Made by a program: the position numbers and the translations under genes. A stretch of 64,000 bases of DNA from Rhabdochlamydiaceae bacterium (GTDB taxonomy: Bacteria > Chlamydiota > Chlamydiia > Chlamydiales > Rhabdochlamydiaceae), in contig JAIELY010000004.1 of the NCBI GenBank assembly GCA_019752555.1, positions 21,844 through 85,843 of the forward strand, written 5' to 3'. Numbering within the stretch: position 1 is the first letter of the stretch; each line of letters opens with the position of its first letter. The notes under the pieces are model-generated. The model was given only the letters and a program-made list of their open reading frames with translations, was not told the origin of the DNA and did not search any database. Below are positions 12,226-36,252 of the stretch, piece after piece.

Positions 12226-13152
12226 TTAGAGCGCCTCTTGCGCTTCATCAATGAAGGCGAGGTTTTGGATGCGAAAATCGAGGATTTTTTCCTTAGCGCG
12301 AACGATTGCTTGGCCAGGCGACAAATTGCGGATCGACTTTCGTTCTTGCTCGAGGAGCTTGGGTCTTAATGTAAGGTAATTTCCTAGATCCTGAGCATAG
12401 TTTTGTGTGGAAAGACGTAGAATTTTCGGGAAAAAGAATTCGATTTGCTTTTCGAGAATTTTGTCCTCGACGATCACAACAATCTCTCTACTGCCATAAC
12501 TTTCTGCAAAAGCCTGAGAGACATCGATCCTCTTTACTTGAAAAAGCTCCTGGATTTTAAGATCGGATAAGAGAGAGAGAAGATGAAGAGCTAATACGGC
12601 ATACTTGCCTGAAATGGGGGCGCCCCATTTAGCGACAGGACGGTCCGGATCCTCTGAGGCGATTCCAAATGGCCCCATCCCAAAATAGAGTTCTGGTAAG
12701 TTTTTAGGAGTAAAAAAAGGGCGGAAGGGAAAGGGATGCCCCTCTTTGTCGATTGCTACATTTTCGTAATCATAAAGCCAAGCGACAGGCTGTCGAACGG
12801 TGTAGTCGACATAAAGGGTTCCTGGCTGAATCATTTTAAGCTGCACCTGTTCAATCAAAGGAGAGGCGCGCAGCTTCTGTTCTGCAGCTCTAAGATCATA
12901 TGTTAACGAAGATGCTGGCGCATCGGATGAGAGGCCTAGGAGCTCAGCTAAATATTCTGTTTTTAAGGCTTGTTTTTGCGGCCCTGTTTGGACAAGGGTT
13001 CTAAGCTTATACTGTGGATCGTTTGCTTGTTTATAGACATGAGCAAAATAGGCTCTAAAGCCAAGATGTCCGCACACTGAGGTCACTAAACTCGAGCCCA
13101 CAATCCAAGCAAGCGCGTGGGTAAGAGCTAAGCGCGGTAAAGGTCGCTTCAT
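12226..13152 (-). CDS. ftsQ: FtsQ-like cell-division protein (one TM helix plus a POTRA-like domain)
   Basis: From the ATG at 13152: MKRPLPRLALTHALAWIVGSSLV (TM), then LRTLVQTGPQKQALKTEYLAELLGL...LIEQVQLKMIQPGTLYVDYTVRQPVAWL (POTRA-like). The ATG overlaps the murC stop as ATGA (13149-13152). It is the last gene of the dcw cluster. Confidence 0.7.
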   Translation of the reverse strand: MKRPLPRLALTHALAWIVGSSLVTSVCGHLGFRAYFAHVYKQANDPQYKLRTLVQTGPQKQALKTEYLAELLGLSSDAPASSLTYDLRAAEQKLRASPLIEQVQLKMIQPGTLYVDYTVRQPVAWLYDYENVAIDKEGHPFPFRPFFTPKNLPELYFGMGPFGIASEDPDRPVAKWGAPISGKYAVLALHLLSLLSDLKIQELFQVKRIDVSQAFAESYGSREIVVIVEDKILEKQIEFFFPKILRLSTQNYAQDLGNYLTLRPKLLEQERKSIRNLSPGQAIVRAKEKILDFRIQNLAFIDEAQEAL

Positions 13153-14525
13153 CGTAATTTTTCCAACAGTTCTGTCCCCAGCTTCGTAATGTCCCCCGCG
13201 CCCATTGTAACTACAACATCCTGCGGCTGCAGCAGCGGAATGAGGTTCTCTGCAAGGGCCTTTCTTGGAAGATAGCATAAATGAACAGAGGAGCTATCGC
13301 CAATTTTTGCAATCAATGCCTCTGTAGTAACCCCTGCAATAGGCTCTTCTCCAGCTGCAAAAATATCTGTGACAATAAGCAAGTTTGAAGGTTCAAACGC
13401 AGGGCCGAATTCCGCAAAACAATCGTGGGTGCGCGTATAGCGATGGGGTTGGAAAACAACAACGAGGCGTCGATGAGAAATCGCGTATTTGACAGCATGA
13501 AGCGTTGCAAAAATCTCTGCTGGGTGATGCGCATAATCATCGTAGATTGCAATCTCGCGCGCTTCCCCTTTTTTCTCCATCCTACGGTTTACCCCCTGAA
13601 AAGATGCTAATGCAGAGCGGAGCTTGTCTTCTGACACATTTAATAACATTCCCAAGCCAAAAACAGCAGCTGCGTTAAGAACGTTATGTCCTCCTATCAG
13701 AGACACCTCGATGCCAGGGTATTCTTTTCCTTTAAAGGTGAGATCAAAAACATTTTTCCAGCCTATCTGCTGATAGTTTGCTACGCAAATGTCATTATCT
13801 TCTTCAAACCCATAACTTACCCCTTTTAAATTCAAAGAACGTAATTTTTCATCGTCACCACACCAGATCAAATGCTCATTGGAGGTGACTCTATTTGCAA
13901 AATGATGATATCCCTCAATGAGAGCTTCTTCCGTTTTCCAGTAGTCGAGATGATCATTATCGATATTTGTGATGATCGCTCCAAAGGGGCGGTACTTGAG
14001 AAATGATCCATCGCTTTCATCTGCCTCTGCGACAAAATAGGGGCCTTTCCCATTGCCTCCATTAGCACCTAAGCTGCGCACAATTCCACCGATTGCAAAG
14101 GAGGGATTTAAATTGGATTGAGATAATACGTGAGCTAACAATGAGGATGTGGTTGTTTTCCCATGGGTTCCTGTCACCAGCAAAGGAGCATACCCTTCCA
14201 TTAAATCAAAGAGCAGATCAGAGCGATGGATCAAATCCCATCCATTTTCTTTGGCGATTTTTATTTCAGGGTTTTGATCGTTTACTGCTGTGCTATAAAC
14301 AACAATGGGAGAATCATTAACAGCATTCTCCGAGTGACCAAATGAGATGATAGCACCTTCTGCTTTCAATTGATCCGTAACATAAGAGGGGGCCAAATCG
14401 CTTCCACTCACGATTTTGCCCCGTTGAAGTAAAATGCGCGCAAGTGCGCTCATTCCAATCCCGCCAATACCTATAAAGTGATATTTTTTTACAGGTTCTG
14501 CAGAGTGCGACAAATCAGATGACAT
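13149..14525 (-). CDS. murC: UDP-N-acetylmuramate--L-alanine ligase, stand-alone with no Ddl fusion
   Basis: 458 aa with HFIGIGGIGMSALA, VTGTHGKTTTSS (Mur ligase P-loop) and DDYAHHPAEI. Confidence 0.95.
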   Translation of the reverse strand: MSSDLSHSAEPVKKYHFIGIGGIGMSALARILLQRGKIVSGSDLAPSYVTDQLKAEGAIISFGHSENAVNDSPIVVYSTAVNDQNPEIKIAKENGWDLIHRSDLLFDLMEGYAPLLVTGTHGKTTTSSLLAHVLSQSNLNPSFAIGGIVRSLGANGGNGKGPYFVAEADESDGSFLKYRPFGAIITNIDNDHLDYWKTEEALIEGYHHFANRVTSNEHLIWCGDDEKLRSLNLKGVSYGFEEDNDICVANYQQIGWKNVFDLTFKGKEYPGIEVSLIGGHNVLNAAAVFGLGMLLNVSEDKLRSALASFQGVNRRMEKKGEAREIAIYDDYAHHPAEIFATLHAVKYAISHRRLVVVFQPHRYTRTHDCFAEFGPAFEPSNLLIVTDIFAAGEEPIAGVTTEALIAKIGDSSSVHLCYLPRKALAENLIPLLQPQDVVVTMGAGDITKLGTELLEKLR

Positions 14526-15586
14526 AATAGGTCCTTATGTTGACGAGACTGGTATTGGGACAATGCAATTTTCATTTCTCTGCATTTATAACCGATAAGC
14601 TCTTTTAATGCTGCGCTCAAGACATCAGGTGTCAACAGGCTTTCTGGAACATAGATCGCTCCTTTGACCTCATCTGTTAAAAACATTGCATTTTTAGTTT
14701 GATGATCCTCTGCTGCATGCGGATAAGGGACTAAAATCGATGGAACCGCAAAGGCGATTAATTCTGAAACAGTAGCCGCCCCAGCACGGGCAACGGCAAT
14801 CGATGCGACTTTGTAAGCAAGCTCCATCCTCGGCTCAAAATCTTTGACGCAGGAGAGGATCTTGTTTTCCTCATAAAAGGAACGCGCCTTTTCTGCGGCT
14901 TCTAAATTGCCTGCAAAATGGATCACTTGGAAAGCCACTTTTTCTTGAGCGCACTGATAAGCTGCCTGAACAAAGCACTCGTTAAGAAAACAAGCGCCTT
15001 GAGAGCCTCCAAAAACGACAATCGTCAATAGATCCTCTTTGAGGCCAAAGTAAGAAAGTGCCTCGCTTCGAGAGCACTGCAGACTCGCACAGCCCACTGG
15101 CATTTGAACAGGAACGACATTTCCACGGAGCATTTTTGATGCGGCTGGGAATGAAATGGCTGTAGCAAGAGCCTTTTTTGAAAACAAGCGGTTTACTTTT
15201 CCCGGAAAAGCATTGGATTCGAAAAGGACATAGGGCACTTTTTTTAAATAAGCAGCGCACAAAACAGAAAAAGAATGAAAGCTTCCAAAGCCCACAACAA
15301 GATCAGGCGCTTCTTGCGTGAGCAAGATCCAGCCTTGACGCACTCCCTTGACTAAAGTGATGAGCGCTTGAAAAACAGCTTTAAGATTACGCCGAAAAAC
15401 AGTTGCGCTTTGCACGTCGCAAAAGCGGTATTTCCCTTTTGAAAAATAACGGTTCGTACTTAAATTGGCTCCTGCAAAAAGAACCTCGCATGAAGATTGC
15501 TTTAAATCGTCAGCTAACGCCTGTGCGGGAAATAAGTGCCCTCCCGTACCGCCAGCTGCAATGATGACTTTCTTTTGTCGATTCAT
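14489..15586 (-). CDS. murG: UDP-GlcNAc:lipid I N-acetylglucosaminyltransferase
   Basis: MNRQKKVIIAAGGTGGHLFPA (G-loop) and a C-terminal RAGAATVSELIAFAVPSILVPYP. The chosen ATG at 15586 overlaps the ftsW stop as ATGA (15583-15586). The ORF track extends to 15643. Confidence 0.93.
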   Translation of the reverse strand: MNRQKKVIIAAGGTGGHLFPAQALADDLKQSSCEVLFAGANLSTNRYFSKGKYRFCDVQSATVFRRNLKAVFQALITLVKGVRQGWILLTQEAPDLVVGFGSFHSFSVLCAAYLKKVPYVLFESNAFPGKVNRLFSKKALATAISFPAASKMLRGNVVPVQMPVGCASLQCSRSEALSYFGLKEDLLTIVVFGGSQGACFLNECFVQAAYQCAQEKVAFQVIHFAGNLEAAEKARSFYEENKILSCVKDFEPRMELAYKVASIAVARAGAATVSELIAFAVPSILVPYPHAAEDHQTKNAMFLTDEVKGAIYVPESLLTPDVLSAALKELIGYKCREMKIALSQYQSRQHKDLLCHLICRTLQNL

Positions 15587-16692
15587 CCTTTTCTCCAAAT
15601 CGATTTTCGCGCAGCAAGGGTTCCAATATTCAAAATCACGCAAAGAGCTAGCATATTGGCAAGCAAGGAAGAGCCCCCTTGGCTAAAAAAGGGCAGGTTA
15701 GTCCCCTTGCTCGGCAGGAGCCCTGAGACAACACCTAAATTTAAAAAGGCTTGAAAACAGATGAGAAAAGTAAAGATTGCGGCGATATAAAATCCTTGCA
15801 GCGTCATCGCTCCATTTGCAATCCGAAAACCGCAAAATCCGATGAACATGTAGAGAAAGATGAGCAAAGCAATCCCTGCAAAACCAAATTCTTCGGCATA
15901 GATCGCAGCGATATAATCGCTGCGCGCTTCTGGCAGGTACTCGAGCTTCTGCAAACTCTCTCCGAGCCCTTTTCCAAACAGCTGCCCGGAACCTGCAGCA
16001 ATTTTAGCTTGATAGGGTTGATGCCCTTTGCCTTTTAAATCATATTCGGGATGTAAATAGATTTGAATACGATCAGAAACATGAGCCATTTGAGAGGCCA
16101 CTACAGCCCCCGATACGCAAAGAATCAAAAGCGGAAGAGCCCAATAAATCCATTTGAGACGCGTCATTACAAATGTGACCACCAAAGAGACCAAAATAAT
16201 GGCGACGCTTCCATTATCCGGTTCAATTAAAATCAACGCAGTAGGAACCGCAATCTTAGCAAGCAATTTCAAAAATGTCTTTAAAACAAGAGGTTTAGCA
16301 AGAGAACTTGTCGCATGAATGTAATACAAAGGGATCAGATACTTCACAAACTCAGAGGGCTGAAAAGAATTTCCAAAGACGTTGATCCACCGATAAGCTC
16401 CGTTGATCTGCTGGCCGACCCCGGGAACAAATACTAGAACTAGAAGAATGGTCGCAGCAATGAGAAGAGGACCGCTGAGCTTAATGAGATTTTGATAGCC
16501 CAAAAACCACACGCCGAGCGCACCCAATCCACCGACTAGCGCATATAAAAGCTGTTTAATCAGCGCATGGTGGGTGCTTCGATCTAAAAATCTGTCTAAC
16601 ACTTCCGCAGACGTCGTATTAAAAATCATTACCAAGCCCATGGCAAAGATCCAGACAACAGAAAGAAGAAGCAATGTGCACATCCGATTCAC
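15583..16692 (-). CDS. ftsW: SEDS-family lipid II flippase/peptidoglycan polymerase, FtsW by position
   Basis: 369 aa and polytopic, with QPSEFVK, PDNGSVAI, LPEARSDYIAAIYAEEFGF and LPSKGTNLPFFSQGGSS, all typical FtsW/RodA motifs. It lies between the murD-side and murG genes. Confidence 0.9.
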   Translation of the reverse strand: MNRMCTLLLLSVVWIFAMGLVMIFNTTSAEVLDRFLDRSTHHALIKQLLYALVGGLGALGVWFLGYQNLIKLSGPLLIAATILLVLVFVPGVGQQINGAYRWINVFGNSFQPSEFVKYLIPLYYIHATSSLAKPLVLKTFLKLLAKIAVPTALILIEPDNGSVAIILVSLVVTFVMTRLKWIYWALPLLILCVSGAVVASQMAHVSDRIQIYLHPEYDLKGKGHQPYQAKIAAGSGQLFGKGLGESLQKLEYLPEARSDYIAAIYAEEFGFAGIALLIFLYMFIGFCGFRIANGAMTLQGFYIAAIFTFLICFQAFLNLGVVSGLLPSKGTNLPFFSQGGSSLLANMLALCVILNIGTLAARKSIWRKG

Positions 16693-16710
16693 TAGATAAA
16701 CCTACTGCAA

Positions 16711-17445
16711 TTAGCGGATTCTAAGTTGGTCTCCCGGCTTTAAACGACGCGCTTTCTCCTCATTGAGGTCATTCAATTTTAATAGCTCGTCCACTTTTAA
16801 ATGGTTTTTTACGGCAATCGTCCAGGGATTATCTCCATTTTTAACAATGTAATACTTAGGAGCTTCATCTTTCTGAGCAGTTATTTGTAAAGCGGGCGCC
16901 TCTTTTGCTGTAGATGGCGAGGCAGCGGGAATTTTGAGCAGCTGACCGATGCGCAAGTTTGTTGTGCTCAGCTGATTGAGGGTCATGATTTGCTCGACAG
17001 AGCAGTGATAATTGCGTGCAATTTTCTCTAACATATCCCCTTTTTTCACTCGATATTCCTTAACATCGCTCAAAGCCTTTTCGACAGCAATCGGAGCTCT
17101 AGGCACAACAGCCACGGGTTTTTCTTCAGCCACGGCTACGAGCTTAAATTCTTCTACAAACGGTTGAACAACAGCTGGCTCTACTTGAGGAGAGGTCGCT
17201 ATAATAGGTTCTGCTTTAGCAACAGGGGCATTCGCATACTGATTCAACGCCTGATCCACCTCATCTCCAATCGTGTTAAGACTTTTGGGTTTAGCAGGAG
17301 CTGCTGCCGCTTGCGTTTGCACAACCTTGGGCACAGCGACAAATTCCTCTTGTACAGAACTCGATTTCAAAGCGCTTGCAAATAAAATAATTAAAAGTCC
17401 TGCGTTAATTAATACTGCAACAATAATCGTATCTCTTCGGCTCAT
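16711..17445 (-). CDS. Membrane-anchored protein with two LysM domains, in the NlpD position of the dcw cluster. No M23/LytM motif is seen.
   Basis: N-terminal TM IIVAVLINAGLLIILFA and an Ala/Pro/Val-rich linker. LysM1 is YRVKKGDMLEKIARNYHCSVEQIMTLNQL...GQLLKIP. LysM2 is YIVKNGDNPWTIAVKNHLKVDELLKLNDL...GDQLRI. Confidence 0.8.
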   Translation of the reverse strand: MSRRDTIIVAVLINAGLLIILFASALKSSSVQEEFVAVPKVVQTQAAAAPAKPKSLNTIGDEVDQALNQYANAPVAKAEPIIATSPQVEPAVVQPFVEEFKLVAVAEEKPVAVVPRAPIAVEKALSDVKEYRVKKGDMLEKIARNYHCSVEQIMTLNQLSTTNLRIGQLLKIPAASPSTAKEAPALQITAQKDEAPKYYIVKNGDNPWTIAVKNHLKVDELLKLNDLNEEKARRLKPGDQLRIR

Positions 17446-17447
17446 AA

Positions 17448-18776
17448 TTAATCCTCACTCTTGAGCGTTAACACAGCTCGTTTAAACTCTTCTCCTCGAT
17501 GCGCATAATCCACAAACATATCAAAGCTGGAACATCCCGGGGAAAGAAGAACGCAATCCCCCGCCTCAGCGCAAGCTTTTGCCAATTGAACAGCTTCACT
17601 CAAAGATCCCGCATGATCGAAATTAAAGCTAGAGGAGAGCTCTTGATCGATCTTTTGTGCAGCCTGACCCATTGCAACAAGTCGTTTCACCTTACCTTGA
17701 AAATGCTCTTTCCAAGGAAGATAGGAAGCTCCCTTATCCACACCGCCTACAATCAGCACCACAGGGCCTTTCATCGCTTCTACCGCATGGATGACCGCAT
17801 CGACATTAGTCCCCTTGCTATCATCAAAAAACTCAACCCCTTCAATTTCCGCGACATATTCAATCCGATGGGCCGGTTTAGAAAATGTCTGCAGGGCCGC
17901 GATAAATTGTTCCGCAGTGACTCCAAACGGCTTACACAACCCCCAAGCTGCCAGTGCATTCACACTTTCATGAAGGCCTAAATTTCTATAAACATCCGGC
18001 AAAAAGTATTCAACGTTGCCACAGTATTTAGCAACGACTTTATCCGTCCATAACTGAGAACTAAAATCATCGCCCATCGTTTGCACTCGATCCGAAAGCC
18101 ATTCTCGACACATCTCATATGCCTGTGTTTGAACGAAAAACATCCCGTTTTCTTTCACACAGTGCTGCAATCGGCATTTCGCCTGAGCGTAAAGAGCCAT
18201 CGTTCGATAACGATCCAGGTGATCGGGTGTTATATTGAGCAAGACCGCAGCATCAAAGACGCGCGCTGTCAACGTCTCTAATTGATAGGAGCTTAGCTCA
18301 ACAACCAATACCTCGTTGCGATTTGGGCTCATGGCGTATGCACTAAGAGGCTCACCGACATTTCCCAATGCACGCGCTTTGATACCAGAACGATTTAAAA
18401 CATGCGCCGTTAAAAGCGTTACAGTCGTCTTTCCATTTGTTCCAGTAACTGCCACCGCAGGCTGATCGATCTCACGAAGGGCAAGCTCTGCTTCGCCTAC
18501 AATTTCAATACCCAGCTTTTTTGCCTGCAGTACAAGCGGATGCTCGGATGAAATTCCAGGGGATAGAACAAAGAGATCGCATCCTTTTAAATCGATCTTG
18601 GCTTGATCGGAGAAAACAGTCAATCCTTGTCTGCTGACCTTTTGAAACTGGGGATCATTAGAAGAGGGCAGTTTGCGGTCTGCCGCAGAGACTTCAATCC
18701 CTTTTGACTGCAAAAAATCGACAGCTGCAAGTCCACTCACTCCCAACCCAAGCACGCATGCTCTTTTCATACCCAC
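17448..18776 (-). CDS. murD: UDP-N-acetylmuramoylalanine--D-glutamate ligase
   Basis: VLGLGVSGLAAVDFL and VTGTNGKTTVT (P-loop), with SPGCSSFDMF near the C-terminus. The start could be GTG at 18776 or ATG at 18770. Confidence 0.93.
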   Translation of the reverse strand: MGMKRACVLGLGVSGLAAVDFLQSKGIEVSAADRKLPSSNDPQFQKVSRQGLTVFSDQAKIDLKGCDLFVLSPGISSEHPLVLQAKKLGIEIVGEAELALREIDQPAVAVTGTNGKTTVTLLTAHVLNRSGIKARALGNVGEPLSAYAMSPNRNEVLVVELSSYQLETLTARVFDAAVLLNITPDHLDRYRTMALYAQAKCRLQHCVKENGMFFVQTQAYEMCREWLSDRVQTMGDDFSSQLWTDKVVAKYCGNVEYFLPDVYRNLGLHESVNALAAWGLCKPFGVTAEQFIAALQTFSKPAHRIEYVAEIEGVEFFDDSKGTNVDAVIHAVEAMKGPVVLIVGGVDKGASYLPWKEHFQGKVKRLVAMGQAAQKIDQELSSSFNFDHAGSLSEAVQLAKACAEAGDCVLLSPGCSSFDMFVDYAHRGEEFKRAVLTLKSED

Positions 18777-20012
18777 CTATTGAAATTTAAGAGAAGAAAT
18801 GCCGATGATCGCAAGAATTAAACTAATGATCCAAAACCGCAAGACGATTTTCGTCTCCGGCCAACCTTTAAATTCAAAATGGTGGTGAAGCGGCGTACAC
18901 AGAAATATCCGTTTTCGATTGCGCAATTTATAACTTCCCACTTGTAAAATCACAGACATTGTCTCTGCGACAAACACCCCGCCGACAAGTGCCAACAAGA
19001 CTTCTCTGCGTAAAAGAAGCGCACAAATTCCAATAAGCCCGCCCAAAGCAAGAGATCCTGTATCTCCCATAAACACCTGTGCAGGATGTCCGTTATACCA
19101 GAGGAATCCCAAACAAGCCCCAATCATCGAAAACAGAAAAATCGCAATTTCTCCGCTCTCTTCGATGTACATGATATTTAGATAGCGCGCCATTTCAATA
19201 TTGTTTGAAAAAAAGGCAAAGACCCCAAGAACGGCTGCAACCATAACCAAACACCCAGAAGCCAGACCATCGAGCCCATCGGTTAAGTTAACAGCATTCG
19301 ATGTCCCCGTCAGTATAAACACAGAAAAACACGCAGCAATTAAAATGCCAGCACCTGTTGCAACGACAACTGGATCCTTATAAAAAGGCACGTAATACCG
19401 ACTCATATACTGCTGAGTATCAAGAGGAATCCCGACAAGATCCACTTTCCCATCTGTTTTTTTTACAACAGTTACCTGTTCCTTTGCAGCAGGAGGCACA
19501 AACCACTTACCGTGATGCAGCGACTCGGTGATAGCAGGACAATACAAATAAACGGAAATCAAGCCGCCTAAAATGATCTGAAGCAAAAGTTTTTTCTTCC
19601 CGCTAAGCCCCTTGGAATTTTTATGCTTCATTTTCAGATAATCATCGAGTCCGCCAAGAAATCCAAGCCAGACTGTAGTAACAGCCAAGATGAGTGTAAA
19701 ACTCGACCGTAGATCCATCCAGAGCACAAGCGAGACTAACATCGAAAAAAGAATCAAAATCCCGCCCATTGTCGGCGTCTCTTTTTTCTTCTCGTGTAAT
19801 TTAATCAAAGCCGGACAATCCTCAACACGAATCGACTGCCCTGTCTTTAATTCAAAAAGCTTGCGGATCACACGAGGCCCAAGAGCGATGGTGAGCAGCA
19901 AAGAGGTGAGCGCTGCCAACATCATCCGAGTTGAAGAATAAGTAAAAACTGTGGGAATTTTCAGACCCACCGCTGCTAATAATTGCTCCAAAAATAAAAT
20001 CACAGTGGACAC
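18777..20012 (-). CDS. mraY: Phospho-N-acetylmuramoyl-pentapeptide transferase, with an extra segment of about 50 aa
   Basis: TPTMGGI, LGGLDDYLK, NAVNLTDGLDGLA, MGDTGSLALGG and PLHHHFE. It has a GTG start. At 411 aa it is longer than the roughly 360 aa I expect for MraY. Confidence 0.92.
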   Translation of the reverse strand: MSTVILFLEQLLAAVGLKIPTVFTYSSTRMMLAALTSLLLTIALGPRVIRKLFELKTGQSIRVEDCPALIKLHEKKKETPTMGGILILFSMLVSLVLWMDLRSSFTLILAVTTVWLGFLGGLDDYLKMKHKNSKGLSGKKKLLLQIILGGLISVYLYCPAITESLHHGKWFVPPAAKEQVTVVKKTDGKVDLVGIPLDTQQYMSRYYVPFYKDPVVVATGAGILIAACFSVFILTGTSNAVNLTDGLDGLASGCLVMVAAVLGVFAFFSNNIEMARYLNIMYIEESGEIAIFLFSMIGACLGFLWYNGHPAQVFMGDTGSLALGGLIGICALLLRREVLLALVGGVFVAETMSVILQVGSYKLRNRKRIFLCTPLHHHFEFKGWPETKIVLRFWIISLILAIIGISSLKFQ

Positions 20013-20063
20013 AATGGGTGGTTAGGGATTAAATGCAAGAATTCGAGTCTACGGCCTCATCTT

Positions 20064-20095
20064 ACATCTAATCCCAAAATTGCAAAACAAAAAAA
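20064..20095. repeat. Copy 1 of a perfect 32-bp direct repeat
   Basis: ACATCTAATCCCAAAATTGCAAAACAAAAAAA, identical to 20488-20519. It lies between the small ORF and mraY. Confidence 0.95.
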
Positions 20096-20115
20096 TTGTC
20101 GAAGACGAGCAAGAT

Positions 20116-20439
20116 TTAAGCATTGCTCTTTGAAGGTCCAACACCCCCTTGAGACCCATAAAACACCATTAAAAACAACATCATGCAAACAGTAACAGGA
20201 GCCAACACCACCTCTAACAGATAATCTGGAATATTCATCTCCTTTTTGTCCGCTTGACATGCTGATAAAGACATTAATGTCATGGCACCAAGAGAAAACG
20301 TAAGCGCCCAATACCCAATCGCATTAAGAGCAACGGCTGTTGTCGCATTTAGAGCCGCGTTTTTAGCAGCAGAATAGGCAGCTACAGTGCCTGCAGCACA
20401 GGCAACGGACGTCCCTGCACCAACTAAATAATTAATCAT
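20116..20439 (-). CDS. Small hydrophobic membrane protein of about 107 aa, inserted between murF and mraY
   Basis: MINYLVGAGTSVACAAGTVAAYSAAKNAALNATTAVALNAIGYWALTFSLGAMTLMSLSA...LLEVVLAPVTVCMMLFLMVFYG is Ala/Gly-rich with at least 2 TM helices. The ATG at 20439 is preceded by AGGTG. The ORF-track start at 20451 is a TTG. Confidence 0.5.
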   Translation of the reverse strand: MINYLVGAGTSVACAAGTVAAYSAAKNAALNATTAVALNAIGYWALTFSLGAMTLMSLSACQADKKEMNIPDYLLEVVLAPVTVCMMLFLMVFYGSQGGVGPSKSNA

Positions 20440-20487
20440 AAACACCTGCAATTAATTTAAACTATACACATTTTCAGCTGCAATCAT

Positions 20488-20519
20488 ACATCTAATCCCA
20501 AAATTGCAAAACAAAAAAA
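20488..20519. repeat. Copy 2 of the perfect 32-bp direct repeat
   Basis: Identical to 20064-20095. It starts 4 nt from the murF stop codon. Confidence 0.95.
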
Positions 20520-20523
20520 CAGA

Positions 20524-21861
20524 TCAGTCTAAAACCTTCCAAAGCTGCAAAGAATTAGACCCTTTAATGAGCACGACATCCCCTTCTTGAGCCAATCCCA
20601 TTACCCTTATTTTAAGCTCATCGATACTCAAGAAATGCTCACCCGGCTTGTTTGCCTCTTGAAATCGACTTGCTATCAGCTTTGTAAACTCGCCTAAACA
20701 CAACACATGATCCACATGCTGCAACGCACACTCCGCTACCTCTTGGTGGCCTGCCTCTGAAAACCTTCCCATTTCGCGCATTTCACCGAGAACCGCGATC
20801 GTCTTTCCAGAAGAGTTTGGCTTAGGCAAGTTCTCAAGGGCCGCTTTCATTGAAGCGGGGTTGGCATTATAAGCATCGTTGATAAACGTGATCCCATTGC
20901 GCTTGATGCTCTCAAAGCGCTGCGGGTAAACATCCATCTTAGGTGCGCATTCCAAAATCTGATCCCAACTTAACCCCAATTCTCGAGCAACTGCGGCAGC
21001 GCCTAAGAAATTCTCGCAAAGATGCGATGCTGTAAAAGGAAGAGTAAACCAAGATGTCGCAACCCCTTTTTCCAGAATCTGAAAGCCTCTTTCTCCCCTT
21101 CTCAAAACAAAATCTTTTTCACCGCCATCTGCCTCTAGCCCATAGATCACTTTCGAGCAAGATCCCAATCCGGCAATTTCTTGAAACCCTGCCGCCTGAA
21201 CATTCATCAGGCCGACTTGAGTATTTGGATGGGAAAAAATGTCTGCTTTTTCTCGAGCAATTCCGGATAATCCGTCTGGAAAATAAGCTGCATGGGCAAG
21301 AGCTATTTTTGTAATCACGGCAATATCAGGCGGGATCATTTTAACCAATTGAGCGATATTTCCCGGCTCACTCATCCCCATCTCTACAACGCATACCTCT
21401 TCATCGAACAGATCATTGAGAATAAATAAAGGAAGACTCACCTGAGAATTCATATTGCCAGGCGTCTTTGCTGTTTTAAAAGCAGATGAGAGCAACTGAG
21501 CAATAAACTCCTTTGTCGTCGTTTTACCAACAGAGCCTGTCACCGCCACCACTTTTTTGGGATTGCTGGCGTAGGCACACGCAGCGATTTTTTGCACAGC
21601 TGCCAAGACATCATCAACAGCAAGCAAAACAAGACCAAAGTGCTCTCCTTGATACTCTTTCGAAACAAGCGCCGCATAAGCCCCTTTTTGAGCCACTTCA
21701 TGTAAATGGGCATGCCCATCGCTGCGTTGTCCTTTTAGAGCAACGAAGAGATCACCCTCTTGCACCTTGCGGCTATCTTGTTCCACTCGATGAATGACCC
21801 TCGCATCTGAAACGCTGATGTTTAACCACTCTGCTAAAGCCTTTAAAGAATGTCGATTCAT
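20524..21861 (-). CDS. murF: UDP-N-acetylmuramoyl-tripeptide--D-alanyl-D-alanine ligase
   Basis: VAVTGSVGKTTTKE (P-loop), EMGMSEPGNI and NDAYNANPASM. Confidence 0.93.
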   Translation of the reverse strand: MNRHSLKALAEWLNISVSDARVIHRVEQDSRKVQEGDLFVALKGQRSDGHAHLHEVAQKGAYAALVSKEYQGEHFGLVLLAVDDVLAAVQKIAACAYASNPKKVVAVTGSVGKTTTKEFIAQLLSSAFKTAKTPGNMNSQVSLPLFILNDLFDEEVCVVEMGMSEPGNIAQLVKMIPPDIAVITKIALAHAAYFPDGLSGIAREKADIFSHPNTQVGLMNVQAAGFQEIAGLGSCSKVIYGLEADGGEKDFVLRRGERGFQILEKGVATSWFTLPFTASHLCENFLGAAAVARELGLSWDQILECAPKMDVYPQRFESIKRNGITFINDAYNANPASMKAALENLPKPNSSGKTIAVLGEMREMGRFSEAGHQEVAECALQHVDHVLCLGEFTKLIASRFQEANKPGEHFLSIDELKIRVMGLAQEGDVVLIKGSNSLQLWKVLD

Positions 21862-31933: not shown

Positions 31934-32723
31934 GCCGTGGCCCTACACCCTTGCCTTAGTCACAGGAGCAAGTTCAGGATTAGGAAGAGCGCTCGCAATT
32001 GAAATTGCAAAACGGGGCACACCTTTAATTCTAACGGGCCGTAATAAAGAAGAGCTCGAGCTTACAGCACGCATGCTCTCTGTGAAAACAACGGTGCTGG
32101 ATCTTGATTTGAACATCCCGCAAGAGCGGCAAAAACTCGTTGCATTAATTCAAGAACAAGCTCCCGACCTGATCCTCAACAACGCAGGACTTGGACACTA
32201 CGGCGATGCGCTTACCACCACAACTGCAGAACAACTCGAGATCGTAGAAGTCAACATCACATCTCTTGTCGAAATTACCCTAGAGGCCTCCCGCACACTC
32301 GTCAAAAAGAGAAAACCGGGAACAATTCTCAATGTCGCATCGGCAGCAGCCTTTTTCCCCTATCCCACGCTTGCCACTTATGCAGCCTCTAAAGCATTTG
32401 TCCTTCAGTTTTCTAAGGCGTTAGATGTCGAGCTCTTCTCCCATGGCATACGCGTTCTGACATCCTGTCCCGGACAAACGGCAACCTCTTTCCGTAGACG
32501 TGCAGGCGGCAACATCCCGCAAAAGCAAGACGCCTGGACGATGCGCTCACAAGATGTTGCCTCTTGCATCTTAAAACAAATTGAAGATCAAGCATCCGTT
32601 CGCATCATCGATTGGCGCTATCGGTTGTGGGTTACACTCGCCCGTTTTGTTCCTAAGTCCATTTTAATGAAGTTCTTAAAAGAATCGATTCGAAAAAGAC
32701 ATCATCGCAACACAATTGTCTGA
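31920..32723 (+). CDS. Short-chain dehydrogenase/reductase (SDR)
   Basis: ALVTGASSGLGRALA (TGxxxGxG), NNAG and YAASKAF (YxxxK). Confidence 0.88.
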   Translation: MSSLKPWPYTLALVTGASSGLGRALAIEIAKRGTPLILTGRNKEELELTARMLSVKTTVLDLDLNIPQERQKLVALIQEQAPDLILNNAGLGHYGDALTTTTAEQLEIVEVNITSLVEITLEASRTLVKKRKPGTILNVASAAAFFPYPTLATYAASKAFVLQFSKALDVELFSHGIRVLTSCPGQTATSFRRRAGGNIPQKQDAWTMRSQDVASCILKQIEDQASVRIIDWRYRLWVTLARFVPKSILMKFLKESIRKRHHRNTIV

Positions 32724-32738
32724 GGAAGATCATAGAAA

Positions 32739-34991
32739 TTAAAACTGATAGGCAACTTCCGCAAACAGCTGGTGATCGTAGTAGGAATCGCCAAACTCAA
32801 AATCGTAATCGAATAAAATGGTGAAATGACTTCCTGGATAGCAGGTAAAACTGCTGCCAATTGTCCATTGGTTACGGTCTGTTTTAGGTGCAGTTTGTGT
32901 AAAATAACCTGCAAGTGCTCCAAGCTCTGAAAATGAAGCTCTAATCTTGACTTGACGATCCAGCCATTGATAATTCCAAAAGCCGTGCAATTCGGGAACA
33001 TAGGATCCAAAACAAGTTTCAAAAAGATAGGCAATTTTAACGCCTAAACTACTCTCAAGATAATCATAATTTTGAGCCTTGATTTTTAAATTTAACGTTT
33101 GAGCTCCCGATTCATGGTAAGAGTTGATATGTACGCGCGAATAAATTGCTGAGCCAACCGGTGTGATTTCCCAGTGTTTAAGACAATATTGATACTCTGT
33201 CGTAGCAAATGCTGAATACTCTTGACCATGATAAGAGGCATGCGCTGTGCGGTTAAGCTCATTAAACGCTATATACCGTTTACCATGATACCGGTTCCAT
33301 CCGTAAGAGAGTCCTCCATCTGCAAACCAAGCAGATCTTTTGTAAGAAACGTAGGCTGTTGCTTCATAGTTATCCGTATGGGTTGTATTTGTCTTTGGAA
33401 GAGGAACAACAAAGTGTCCATTTTTAATGAATGTACTAGCGTAACCCGCTGCCACTCCGACGCGCAGCCCCGTTGCTGCGGGGGCGTCCATCGCTAAAAG
33501 AGTGCCCCATGTGTTGGCATCATAACCAAGACCAGCACTGTGATTGCTCTGCCGTCCGAAATACCCAAAACCATCTGTCCAAATCTTGACCTCCTCTTTT
33601 TGGTCACAAGGGGCGCAACTTAAGTCAACTAAGCTACGACGGCATAAACAGCGATCGCGATCAAAGTGCTTTAGAAAGATCTTTTGAAATTGTCTTGTTG
33701 TATTAAAGCTTTCCTGAGCTACCCCTCTCAATGATTGCGCTGGATAGATTTGATAAACATCGTACGTGTATTCTTCCCAGGTAGGCTCAGAGAGTTGCCG
33801 CTCTACATAATCTAAGTCGCTGCCAGGATAATCGTCTGCGATCGGACACAACTGCAACATCACCTCATCATTGCATCCTCCCTCGAGCCCTTGCAGCCAA
33901 GGAGGACATCCACTATTTACAGGCGGCTGAACAGGACCTGTTTGAGGTTGATTAACAATAAAAATAGAGCCATTGGTATTGACTCCATAAAAAGTCATCC
34001 GCCAATCAGGATCATTGATTAAATTAATGGTAGCTCCACTTGTACCGCTGGCCGCAGAAACGACAGGATAGCTAAGCGCAAACCGAGTGGGACGGGGATT
34101 GGAAAAAAAATGATAAATGAGATCCACAGAACCATTGATTGTGTTCGACTGCTCGACAACTAAAGCCCCAGTTAGACTTTGGTTCATGTTGATAAGAACA
34201 TTTCCTTGAAAAAAACTATTTCCCTGAACACTTAGAAAGTTTTTTTCTGTATTTAATGAGGTATTAAGGATGAGATCTCCTTGGACAACCATGCTGGGCC
34301 CTGAAATATCAGTGCTTCTAAGGGTGATCATAATTGCGCACAAATTACCATTAATCACCGCTGCTTGCGTTTTAGTCTTCTTCATCGTAATGTCACTAAT
34401 GCCAACGTTCCCATTAATGATGCTCCCTGGTTCCATCTTAAGAAGGCCGCCCCCTTGCATGGGATAGGGACCAATGTTTCCATTGACAATCGTATTCCCG
34501 CTTAGATTCAGCAATCCAGAAGTGCCATTAAAAGTGACAGATCCACCGGGCGAAAGATCAAGATGATCTTCAAGAAAGATCACTCCGTTGCCCGAATAAT
34601 CGACGTTTGCACAGTGAACACCCGCTTCAAAGGTCACGCTTGCCCCGCCTACATTAAGGGTTCCTATATAAAGAGGCGTCTGATCTCCCACCTTACCCTT
34701 CACAGTCGATGAGGCCCCCGAGCCCCCGCCAAAGGTCACATTTCCTAATCCATTAATGCTTGTTTGAATGCCCATGGAATTATTTGCACTATTAACTGTG
34801 CTTCCACCTGGCACAAAAAGAGTGTTTTGATTGACGTTCTGGTTGATAAAGCTCACTCCATCATTTTCACCTTGAGAATCTAGATTGACAGTGCCAGGAC
34901 CCGATGCACCATCAATCACCTGTAAAGAGGCAAAGAGGCTAGAAACAGAAAAGAGAGCAGAGAATAAATAGAGTATGAACAAATAAGGCAT
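32739..34991 (-). CDS. Autotransporter outer-membrane protein (Pmp-like passenger plus a C-terminal beta-barrel)
   Basis: Signal peptide MPYLFILYLFSALFSVSSLFA. The Gly/Asn/Ser/Thr/Val-rich passenger is repetitive (GGSVTFNGTSGLLNLSGNTIVNGNIG, NVGGASVTFEAG, FINQN, FFQGN). The last 280 aa or so have alternating beta-strand character and end in AEVAYQF. Confidence 0.8.
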   Translation of the reverse strand: MPYLFILYLFSALFSVSSLFASLQVIDGASGPGTVNLDSQGENDGVSFINQNVNQNTLFVPGGSTVNSANNSMGIQTSINGLGNVTFGGGSGASSTVKGKVGDQTPLYIGTLNVGGASVTFEAGVHCANVDYSGNGVIFLEDHLDLSPGGSVTFNGTSGLLNLSGNTIVNGNIGPYPMQGGGLLKMEPGSIINGNVGISDITMKKTKTQAAVINGNLCAIMITLRSTDISGPSMVVQGDLILNTSLNTEKNFLSVQGNSFFQGNVLINMNQSLTGALVVEQSNTINGSVDLIYHFFSNPRPTRFALSYPVVSAASGTSGATINLINDPDWRMTFYGVNTNGSIFIVNQPQTGPVQPPVNSGCPPWLQGLEGGCNDEVMLQLCPIADDYPGSDLDYVERQLSEPTWEEYTYDVYQIYPAQSLRGVAQESFNTTRQFQKIFLKHFDRDRCLCRRSLVDLSCAPCDQKEEVKIWTDGFGYFGRQSNHSAGLGYDANTWGTLLAMDAPAATGLRVGVAAGYASTFIKNGHFVVPLPKTNTTHTDNYEATAYVSYKRSAWFADGGLSYGWNRYHGKRYIAFNELNRTAHASYHGQEYSAFATTEYQYCLKHWEITPVGSAIYSRVHINSYHESGAQTLNLKIKAQNYDYLESSLGVKIAYLFETCFGSYVPELHGFWNYQWLDRQVKIRASFSELGALAGYFTQTAPKTDRNQWTIGSSFTCYPGSHFTILFDYDFEFGDSYYDHQLFAEVAYQF

Positions 34992-35060
34992 AGTGGATGC
35001 AGCGTACGAAAAAAAAGTTTTTCTTACATCCTATTTTTTCATACAGAAGAACAAGAAAAA

Positions 35061-35095
35061 AGATCGTGCGTCAAAATAGATTCGACGCACGATCT
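35061..35095 (-). terminator. Rho-independent terminator of the LRR gene
   Basis: AGATCGTGCGTC (35061-35072) pairs with GACGCACGATCT (35084-35095): a perfect 12-bp stem. On the minus strand it is followed by TTTTTC. It starts 12 nt after the stop at 35107. Confidence 0.75.
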
Positions 35096-35106
35096 CGAGC
35101 TGCAGC

Positions 35107-36252
35107 TTAAGTCGAACTACTGCAAGCTGAAGAGCTCCCTGAAGAGATTGCAGGAAGCTCTAAGAGTGCAAAAGTGCCATAAGTTGTACGTCTTACCGAA
35201 TCAAAAGACGAAGACGAACTAGCCTGAGATGTTGTCGAAGCAGCAGGTGCTGAAGAGGTGGATTTTGCAACGGCAGACTCTGTTGGCACTCGTGAAGGAG
35301 CCGCTCTTCTCAAGCGCTTCAACTCAGATATTTCCGACGCAGATAATTTAACAATAGATCCAACACCAAAACCATCGTGATGGTCATAACTCATATACAT
35401 CTTCGGGCTAAATCTAATTTCTTTTGGCAAGCTTTTTGAAATCTGCACTAATTGCCGTTTTGAAAAACAACAACGATCTGCATCCAATCGCTCTAAGCTC
35501 GGACTATCCTTTAAAAAATCCAAAAACTTCATATCTTTAAACTTGGCACCGTCAATTCGAAGAAAGAGAATCTTTGTGTTCGTTAAAAACGCTCGAAAGA
35601 AAATTTCCATCGAAGGACAATATGTCAGACGATCATACATTAGCTCCAAGAATTTTACCGACCCCTTATTCTGACTTAACGCCTGGGCTAAAAGAACTAA
35701 GCCCTGATCGGGCACATTCCAGACTCTTAAATCCTTTAATTTACTTTTAGAAGCCAAATCTACAATAGATTTCGAAAAGAGCTGTCGAGAGATAAAAAAT
35801 TCAAAATCAAATTTCAATGAAACTTTTTTGAGCGTAGGATGATTTTTTAGTACGGTAATTAATTTATTTAAATTTTCAGAAGAATTCAAATAATGAGAAG
35901 CATCACGACCGTAAATGCCGTCTAAATTCACGAGAGAGAGGTCTAATCTCAATGCCTTAAGACTCTTATTTTCACGGATAACTGTTGAAAGAAATTTGAT
36001 CTCAACTCCGTTTAATTCTATTTTAACAATAGATAGTTTTTTTAAATGTTCAGACTCACTTATATAACGACCAAATTTCGCAAGCGATTCGGGGTTAATT
36101 CCTCTAAAGATTGAAAAAAAAGATTTTTCACTATTTAACCAAGAAATTTTTTGAACATTTGGGTTCTTTTTAATCTTTGATAAACCGTCTTCCAAATCAC
36201 CAAACCTTATCGATCCACTTTGAGTTGGAATTGAACTAGAAGAAACTGCCAT
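35107..36252 (-). CDS. Leucine-rich-repeat protein (ribonuclease-inhibitor-like LRRs) with a Ser-rich C-terminal tail; candidate secreted effector
   Basis: Repeats include LKKLSIVKIELNGVEIKFL, LKALRLDLSLVNLDG, LKKVSLKFD, LKDLRVWNVPDQGLVLLAQALSQNKGSVKFLEL and LERLDADRCCFSKRQLVQI. Tail: SSAPAASTTSQASSSSSFDS. The N-terminus is MAVSSSSIPTQSGS. The gene is visibly more AT-rich than its neighbours. Confidence 0.75.
   Translation of the reverse strand: MAVSSSSIPTQSGSIRFGDLEDGLSKIKKNPNVQKISWLNSEKSFFSIFRGINPESLAKFGRYISESEHLKKLSIVKIELNGVEIKFLSTVIRENKSLKALRLDLSLVNLDGIYGRDASHYLNSSENLNKLITVLKNHPTLKKVSLKFDFEFFISRQLFSKSIVDLASKSKLKDLRVWNVPDQGLVLLAQALSQNKGSVKFLELMYDRLTYCPSMEIFFRAFLTNTKILFLRIDGAKFKDMKFLDFLKDSPSLERLDADRCCFSKRQLVQISKSLPKEIRFSPKMYMSYDHHDGFGVGSIVKLSASEISELKRLRRAAPSRVPTESAVAKSTSSAPAASTTSQASSSSSFDSVRRTTYGTFALLELPAISSGSSSACSSST

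Follow-up and report, generated by a model that had tools for sequence, protein, structure and literature searches.

We analysed the junction between the division and cell wall (dcw) genes murF and mraY in a 64,000-nt stretch of DNA (the window) from a Rhabdochlamydiaceae bacterium (assembly GCA_019752555.1, contig JAIELY010000004.1, positions 21,844 to 85,843). Two sharp-edged direct repeats of 37 bp bracket an insert of 387 bp at this junction, and the insert carries a single small gene for a predicted membrane protein of 107 amino acids. The repeated segment appears to be the core promoter of mraY. The most probable history of the locus, to which we assign a probability of roughly 0.7, is that a lineage-specific insertion of the 387 bp duplicated this promoter, and that the insertion may have taken place by integration of the Campbell type.

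Two copies of a 37-bp repeat bracket the insert

All genes of the locus lie on the minus strand of the window, as judged from the list of open reading frames (ORFs). An earlier note on this DNA had drawn attention to a 32-mer, ACATCTAATCCCAAAATTGCAAAACAAAAAAA on the plus strand, which is present at 20064-20095 and at 20488-20519 with no mismatch. The pair proved to be real, but its length had to be corrected: the perfect repeat comprises 33 nt (20063-20095 and 20487-20519), and with one mismatch permitted it comprises 37 nt (20059-20095 and 20483-20519). The sole mismatch of the 37-mer pair is at 20062 (T) and 20486 (A), so that on the coding strand the repeat reads TTTTTTTGTTTTGCAATTTTGGGATTAGATGTA[A/T]GAT. 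The copy at the murF side, copy A, was delimited by the repeat search (20483..20519, minus strand; coding strand TTTTTTTGTTTTGCAATTTTGGGATTAGATGTATGAT). The copy at the mraY side, copy B (20059..20095, minus strand), was aligned with the corresponding regions of relatives, and contains the putative mraY promoter of the ancestral type, P_B. Between the two copies lies the unique insert (20096..20482, minus strand). The spacing of the copies (424), the distance from the murF stop codon to copy A (4 nt) and that from copy B to the GTG start codon of mraY (51 nt) are as the note had given them.

No match comparable to the 32-mer pair was obtained in any of 100 shuffles. Moreover, no third copy of the 32-mer was found in the whole assembly (2,067,720 bp in 42 contigs), even when up to three mismatches were permitted. 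The comparison with the rest of the genome, which the note had proposed as a check, thus leaves two copies only, and we rejected the idea that the 32-mer is a dispersed genomic repeat.

The site is empty in two species of the same genus

The closest relatives of the bacterium are uncultured Chlamydiae, many of which are labelled Simkaniaceae. Two of them belong to its own genus: the sister species 'Parachlamydiales bacterium SW_7' (G002), and a third species (G001); the genome from which the window comes is referred to as G000. The MraY protein encoded in the window is 94% identical to that of the sister species over the full length, and 97% identical over the first 94 residues. The murF-mraY spacer of the sister species is 88 nt long and contains a single copy of the motif and no ORF. 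To the left, this single copy is flanked by sequence like that at the murF side of copy A, and to the right by sequence like that at the mraY side of copy B. A colinear alignment of the whole window with the sister species gives the window an excess of exactly 424 bp, with blocks that share 38 nt in the sister species (a gap of 386 in the window versus -38 in G002). As judged from the alignment, this overlap is the signature of one repeat copy. The third species has one copy of the motif as well, and no ORF. The note had suggested that the spacer was duplicated when the cassette was inserted, and had proposed to compare the junction in relatives; the empty single-copy site in both species and the difference of 424 bp are in agreement with its suggestion.

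At two positions of the motif both copies in the window have G and A, in place of the T and C that are found in the sister species, in the third species and in two further sequences (L027 and L029). As both copies carry these two lineage-specific substitutions, the duplication came after the substitutions. Taken together, the pattern of presence and absence and the shared derived states would be explained most economically by a gain after the split from the sister species. A second repeat pair at the murF-mraY junction was not found in any of the other relatives, including those with enlarged spacers and G022, in which one had been suspected.

The repeated segment resembles a conserved mraY promoter

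We aligned the two copies from the window with the regions upstream of mraY in nine relatives. In the resulting alignment of 11 sequences the TTTG, TTTT and T-A-x-G-A-T columns are invariant or at least 90% conserved, and the spacer between the conserved blocks is variable in sequence and fixed in length. The pattern that the relatives and the window have in common upstream of mraY is TTTTG(C), a run of T, and TAAGAT. Conserved blocks with a fixed-length spacer would be the footprint expected of a sigma-70-type promoter, and we infer from this conservation that the 37-mer probably acts as the mraY core promoter. The duplicated segment spans exactly such a unit, from the T-tract through the last base of the -10 element.

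The putative promoter of the small ORF, P_A (minus strand), has a -35-like element, TTTGCA at 20510-20505 or TTGCAA at 20509-20504, and a -10 element, TATGAT, at 20488-20483. In the putative promoter of mraY, P_B (minus strand), the corresponding elements are TTGCAA at 20085-20080 (or TTTGCA at 20086-20081) and TAAGAT at 20064-20059. The arrangement in copy A, TTTGCA-16-TATGAT, matches the sigma-70 consensus at 9 of 12 positions according to a promoter scan. That in copy B, TTTGCA-16-TAAGAT, was absent from the output of the scan and matches at 8 of 12 positions by hand count from the sequence. Both the hexamers and the 16-nt spacing fit the form of sigma-70 (chlamydial sigma-66) promoters, TTGACA and TATAAT separated by 16-18 nt. 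The only difference between the copies falls within the -10 element, which is TAAGAT before mraY and TATGAT before the new ORF. As TAAGAT also occupies the homologous position before mraY in the sister species and other relatives, the T is the derived state; TATGAT agrees with TATAAT at five of six positions.

In more distant chlamydiae murF and mraY abut, and an internal mraY promoter thus appears to be specific to this clade. The possibility that the repeat is a reused internal promoter had been put forward in the note as an alternative to an insertion. The coincidence of the repeat with a conserved motif resembling -35 and -10 elements speaks for such a reuse, which is not truly an alternative to the insertion.

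The insert contains an orphan gene for a predicted small membrane protein

The small ORF (P0001; 20439..20116, minus strand; 107 codons from an ATG, taken from the ORF list with its translation) is preceded by a Shine-Dalgarno-like AGGTG (20443..20447, minus strand), read from the sequence 3 nt before the ATG. Its codon log-odds score, 0.278 bits per codon, equals that of windows of real genes (0.272±0.085). Stop-free random sequences of the same composition scored 0.004±0.081 bits per codon, and none of 2000 reached the score of the ORF. The other five frames of the insert had strongly negative codon scores. Synonymous codon usage and GC content of the ORF are native-like. By these measures the ORF looks like a real coding gene, and its native-like codon usage suggests either that the donor had a similar composition or that the gene arose inside the lineage.

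The product is rich in Ala and Gly and has hydrophobic segments at residues ~1-22, 34-60 and 72-95. According to the hydropathy profile, the segment at ~72-95 is a strong transmembrane segment, that at 34-60 is a weaker one, and the N-terminal segment is the Ala/Gly-rich one. The two lobes (~34-60 and ~72-95) are split by a polar, charged loop of 12 residues. A single-sequence AlphaFold model consists of three helices, two of them at 38-67 and 73-97, but is of low confidence (predicted local distance difference test score of 58) and too weak for a fold search. We also noticed the sequence LSAC at residues 57-60 (window 20260-20271), right after the second hydrophobic segment. It fits the lipobox L-[AS]-[GA]-C, although with its cysteine at residue 60 it is unusually distant from the N-terminus.

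No homologue of the protein was found among 5.8 billion proteins, in 40 relatives, or in plasmid and phage collections and JGI metagenome contigs. A HMMER search against 1.84 billion representatives returned only one marginal match, to a protein of 2169 amino acids (E = 6.5e-4), which is probably an effect of composition. The best matches in Pfam (14 bits) and NCBIfam (15 bits) were below the respective cut-offs of 27.9 and 71 bits. Ala-rich ORFs of 127-131 codons on contig C35 of the same assembly and contig C45 of the sister species were considered as possible kin and rejected, since their pairwise similarity (E = 24) reflects composition only. In being small, lineage-specific and equipped with two adjacent hydrophobic segments, the protein resembles the inclusion membrane (Inc) proteins and other small orphan membrane proteins of chlamydiae. 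It differs from them in that its lobes are split by the 12-residue charged loop, its N-terminus is an Ala/Gly-rich helix, and it matches no family. Inc proteins are characterised by a bilobed hydrophobic domain of ~40-60 residues, an N-terminal type III secretion signal and residence in the inclusion membrane; the Inc-like or division-associated role that the note had brought up may be considered for the protein.

The insert has no second copy in the genomes searched

A sensitive blastn search of the insert against the whole assembly matched only the insert itself, and no match to its DNA was found in 400 genomes of the order. A search of metagenome contigs for its source by the pattern of the leader gave nothing. 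We also considered that the insert arose by tandem duplication and divergence of murF or mraY, and rejected this, as no similarity to either was found.

The only long ORF of the insert is that of the 107-residue orphan, and its neighbours are murF and mraY. The insert thus contains neither a transposase nor an integrase gene, as the note had stated correctly; no search was made for a recombinase that acts in trans. A comparison by eye of the ends of the insert, TGCAGCTGAAAATG... and ...CGTCTTCGACAA, revealed no terminal inverted repeat.

Independent assemblies contain the mraY-side part of the structure

The exact MraY sequence is present on Logan contigs of four other sequencing runs (SRR30013113, SRR30013114, SRR13608728 and SRR33243636). 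Two of these contigs (L020 and L023) run unbroken from the small ORF through copy B into mraY and are identical to the window. Two others (L021 and L022) begin exactly within the common 33-mer, and the contigs with murF (L024 and L025) end exactly within it. Such breaks are expected of an assembly graph with k = 31 when the 33-mer is present in two copies. The murF sequences on L024 and L025, which come from two runs, differ from the window by 4 nt, and therefore do not represent the identical strain.

Other repeat-bounded cassettes and indels

A scan of the whole genome yielded no more than eight pairs of sharp-edged repeats comparable to the murF-mraY pair. One of them lies upstream of eno, where an AbiEi/AbiEii toxin-antitoxin pair, co-directional with eno, is located between direct repeats of ~75 nt (contig C16:28541-30225; locus L114). 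The repeat at this site corresponds to the 3'-terminal ~26 codons of the gene upstream, and ends just before the Shine-Dalgarno sequence of eno. In the third species the eno site is empty and has one copy. In the sister species a different insert, with ORFs of 123 and 125 codons, lies between the same repeats, and the right-hand boundary is 10 nt further on, so that the repeat takes in the Shine-Dalgarno sequence. The lengths of the repeats, including the genome-wide pairs and the extended repeats of the eno site, are variable and range from 33 to ~86 nt. The sequence AGAT|GAGG (coding strand) marks the right-hand boundary at both the murF-mraY and the eno site, which are two cases only.

Three further loci of the genome came to our attention. 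At C16:2684-3247 a small membrane-protein ORF of 86 codons is located between perfect direct repeats of 67 nt with a spacing of 497; the flanks and the interior of this cassette are on three separate contigs of the sister species. At C1:106561-108184 a gene of 458 codons, which is present in the sister species too, lies between perfect direct repeats of 67 nt with a spacing of 1557. At C22:7761-12566 an island of 4.7 kb lies between direct repeats of ~130 nt, each made up of two exact blocks, of 70 and 43 nt, and a short extension. By eye, the repeat seems to contain the 3' portion of a sequence resembling a tRNA, which would make the island a classical integrated element.

Between the window and the sister species there are ten other indels above 100 nt. 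Exact flanking repeats of more than 10 nt are lacking at all of them with one exception, a 21-nt repeat at an indel of 113 nt. Long flanking repeats are thus not a general signature of indels here, an idea that we considered and rejected, and the long repeat is special to the murF-mraY event. Separately, we noted that the region 32711-35415 of the window has ~2.3 kb more than the corresponding G002:C22:56317-56701, and that the sister species has insertions of 0.6-1.0 kb relative to the window, e.g., after 1952, 12199, 21862 and 24762. No flanking repeat of more than 10 nt was found at that region or at those insertions.

One could speculate, from the cases above, that the genus has a general route, independent of a transposase or integrase encoded in the insert, by which single-gene cassettes are put into tight essential operons, each of them duplicating 33-86 nt of the target. 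The contents of the repeat-bounded slots would then be exchangeable, and AGAT|GAGG would be the point of cleavage or crossover. We regard this generalization as unlikely at present.

Surroundings of the insert

The insert lies in the first intergenic region of the dcw operon. The operon begins on the minus strand with murF (445 codons, 21861..20524, from the ORF list), which is divergent from tRNA-Cys and rsmI. Its product is 79% identical to MurF of the sister species by tblastn, and Mur_ligase Pfam domains are recorded on the near-identical murF copies of the Logan contigs. The mraY gene (20012..18777, minus strand) has 411 codons from the GTG at 20012, or 408 if the GTG at 20003 is the start, and murD (18776..17448, minus strand, from the ORF list) follows directly. 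Otherwise the dcw cluster (12226-20012) is compact: no gap in it exceeds 18 nt, and in the ORF list four pairs of neighbours overlap. The interval of 511 nt between murF and mraY is therefore its only large gap, in accordance with the view of the note that there is no other real gap in the cluster. Between murF and mraY neither an Rfam match at E <= 1 nor a tRNA was found, and a scan for intrinsic terminators found none at the site.

Copy B takes part in a strong predicted hairpin (20025..20075, minus strand), in which the 5' arm, GGGATTAGATGTAAGATGAG, is the distal half of copy B, and the 3' arm, CTCG..TCTTGCATTTAATCCC, belongs to the mraY leader. Its folding energy is -26.2 kcal/mol (z = -6.3), and none of 200 shuffles was as good. 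The hairpin is weak in the sister species, and the strong form is specific to the species of the window. According to the sequences read by eye, each of at least five substitutions that separate the two species creates a hairpin pair here. On the coding strand the non-canonical pairs are G.U in both cases, which would point to a structure at the level of RNA. A transcript starting from P_B at ~20052 would lack the 5' arm, and has no significant structure. The hairpin would form only in read-through RNA. As it has no U-tract, it does not qualify as an intrinsic terminator; a role in processing or as an operator would be possible.

The murF-mraY junction is enlarged in some other chlamydiae as well. 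In the distant metagenome-assembled genome 'Chlamydiales bacterium O_S4.1_17' (L077 2073-2501) the spacer is 428 nt long and contains an unrelated ORF of 112 codons on the opposite strand, with an Inc-like bilobed hydrophobic domain. The junction in L033 comprises 1963 nt and two genes. In L028 the spacer of 314 nt folds as a long hairpin with near-perfect pairing (-144 kcal/mol). This junction appears to have received insertions repeatedly.

Discussion

The course of events that we favour would be as follows. In the lineage of an uncultured Simkaniaceae-like chlamydia, DNA of 387 bp would have entered the short spacer between murF and mraY. A sharply bounded segment of 37 bp, comprising the T-tract, the -35-like TTGCAA/TTTGCA, the spacer of fixed length and the -10 element TAAGAT, would have been duplicated in this event. 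The new gene would lie behind one copy of the promoter, and the A-to-T change that brought its -10 element (TATGAT) nearer to TATAAT would have come later. The essential genes mraY-murD-ftsW-murG would retain the other copy at its original position. As there is no terminator between the units, read-through from murF and the new gene into mraY would be expected.

The insertion itself may have been a single crossover of the Campbell type, in which a small circular DNA carrying a copy of the 37-bp target would have integrated. Integration of this kind yields sharp-edged direct repeats, whose length is set by the homology carried and not by the stagger of an enzyme. The variable lengths of the repeats (33 to ~86 nt) fit such a homology-dependent process better than a fixed stagger, and all of them are above the minimal homology for RecA recombination. 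Selection would keep only those events that do not orphan the essential mraY (or eno). The end of the upstream gene and the expression signals of the downstream gene seem to have been left intact in both the murF-mraY and the eno case. The locus resembles Campbell-type events, such as suicide-plasmid integrants and aberrantly excised elements, in the direct repeats of the target, the single-copy empty site, the variable repeat length, and the intact signals of the upstream and downstream genes. It differs from them in that neither a circular donor nor a plasmid backbone nor an origin for the insert was found and in that the homology is very short; the assignment to this type is drawn from anatomy only.

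Several observations weigh against this account. The element evolves slowly (35 of 37 positions are identical between the species), and the near-identity of the copies dates the event only weakly; a precise repeat-mediated loss in the sister species may be conceivable. Neither a donor of the insert nor a circular form was found in the searches made, and, as the genome is 91.7% complete, a source copy could sit in the missing part. The join from murF through copy A to the ORF rests on the deposited contig of 168 kb, as the k = 31 Logan contigs break there. Finally, the promoter scan found one site where 1.5 were expected in shuffled sequence, so that the promoter call rests on phylogenetic conservation.

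Could the arrangement be ancestral in the genus, with the cassette lost precisely from both the sister and the third species, in each by recombination from one copy to the other? Deletion between direct repeats, both RecA-dependent and by slippage, is known, and repeats of 33-37 nt would be able to mediate it precisely. With a motif that is so similar between species, the identity of the copies alone is no proof of a recent event, and the repeat-bounded slot at eno is common to two species. Nevertheless, this history requires two independent precise losses, and does not account for the two derived states that the copies of the window share as against G002, G001, L027 and L029. Moreover, no remnant of the ORF was detected in the 40 relatives or the 400 genomes of the order, and no repeat at the junction in other relatives with an enlarged spacer. 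We consider an ancestral origin decidedly improbable. Slightly less so, yet still quite unlikely, is that the repeats are the attL and attR sites of a tiny non-autonomous cassette, similar to a cis-mobilizable element (CIME), with a recombinase encoded elsewhere, for which the overlap with a promoter would be akin to that with the 3' ends of tRNA genes. The sharp-edged identical repeats and the single-copy empty site are what one would expect of such a cassette, as are the different contents of the eno slot in the two species, the common AGAT|GAGG boundary, and the presence in the genome of the island whose ~130-nt repeat was taken by eye to include a tRNA 3' end. But neither the insert nor its immediate surroundings encode a recombinase, the cassette occurs once and was seen in this context only, and the repeats of the cassettes have no common core beyond 8 nt and differ in length (37 versus 75-86 nt). 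In addition, the eno repeat of the sister species ends 10 nt beyond that of the genome of the window, which is a misfit with a fixed crossover point.

A target-site duplication by a staggered break, whether transposase-like or in the course of break repair, seems highly improbable. The long and variable duplications made by IS1549 and IS1634, direct repeats of 8-514 bp, are a precedent for it (PMC2266710), and the repeats of tens of bases at the murF-mraY junction resemble them. In contrast to these insertion sequences (ISs), the 387-bp insert encodes no transposase, shows no terminal inverted repeats by eye, and is without a second copy in the genome. Judged by these same traits, it is neither an IS nor a miniature inverted-repeat transposable element. 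The absence of comparable repeats at the other large indels of the window, except for the one of 21 nt, also argues against such a duplication. We give equally little credence to the idea of an artefact or a mixed population, in which the chromosome would read murF-repeat-mraY and the ORF would be on a separate or tandem molecule, or to that of a non-coding insert. The k = 31 Logan graph alone would also fit an empty site with a cycle of 424 bp, and the ORF has no homologue whatsoever. However, the deposited contig of 168 kb spans both copies, and two Logan contigs run unbroken from the ORF through copy B into mraY. As for coding, an open frame of 107 codons in 387 bp at 44% GC has a chance of ~0.002 per frame by a hand estimate from base composition, and the native codon usage of the ORF, with strongly negative scores in the five other frames, points in the same direction.

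The locus also resembles genomic islands and CIME-like elements, which have flanking direct repeats too, and in which the duplicated part restores the target, as islands do with the tRNA 3' end that they interrupt. The restored element would be a promoter at the murF-mraY junction, and the 3' end of a gene together with a Shine-Dalgarno sequence at eno. The repeats and the empty site are those of an integrative element; an integrase in or next to the insert is lacking. The insert is moreover tiny (387 bp, one gene), it went into a promoter within the dcw operon, and the cassette repeats have no common core.

On the evidence of the sequences compared here, the locus would represent a tidy but fairly ordinary lineage-specific gain of an orphan gene with duplication of a promoter. 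The orphan protein is limited to one species, and its biological reach is probably small. The locus would show how a brand-new gene can enter a tight essential operon with the downstream genes keeping their promoter. Chlamydiae divide without FtsZ and rely on the MraY/MurG pathway. For a putative internal dcw promoter in these bacteria, the two copies of the 37-mer, one base apart in the -10 element, provide a natural pair. If the pattern holds in closed genomes, the repeat-bounded cassette slots would be the more interesting result.

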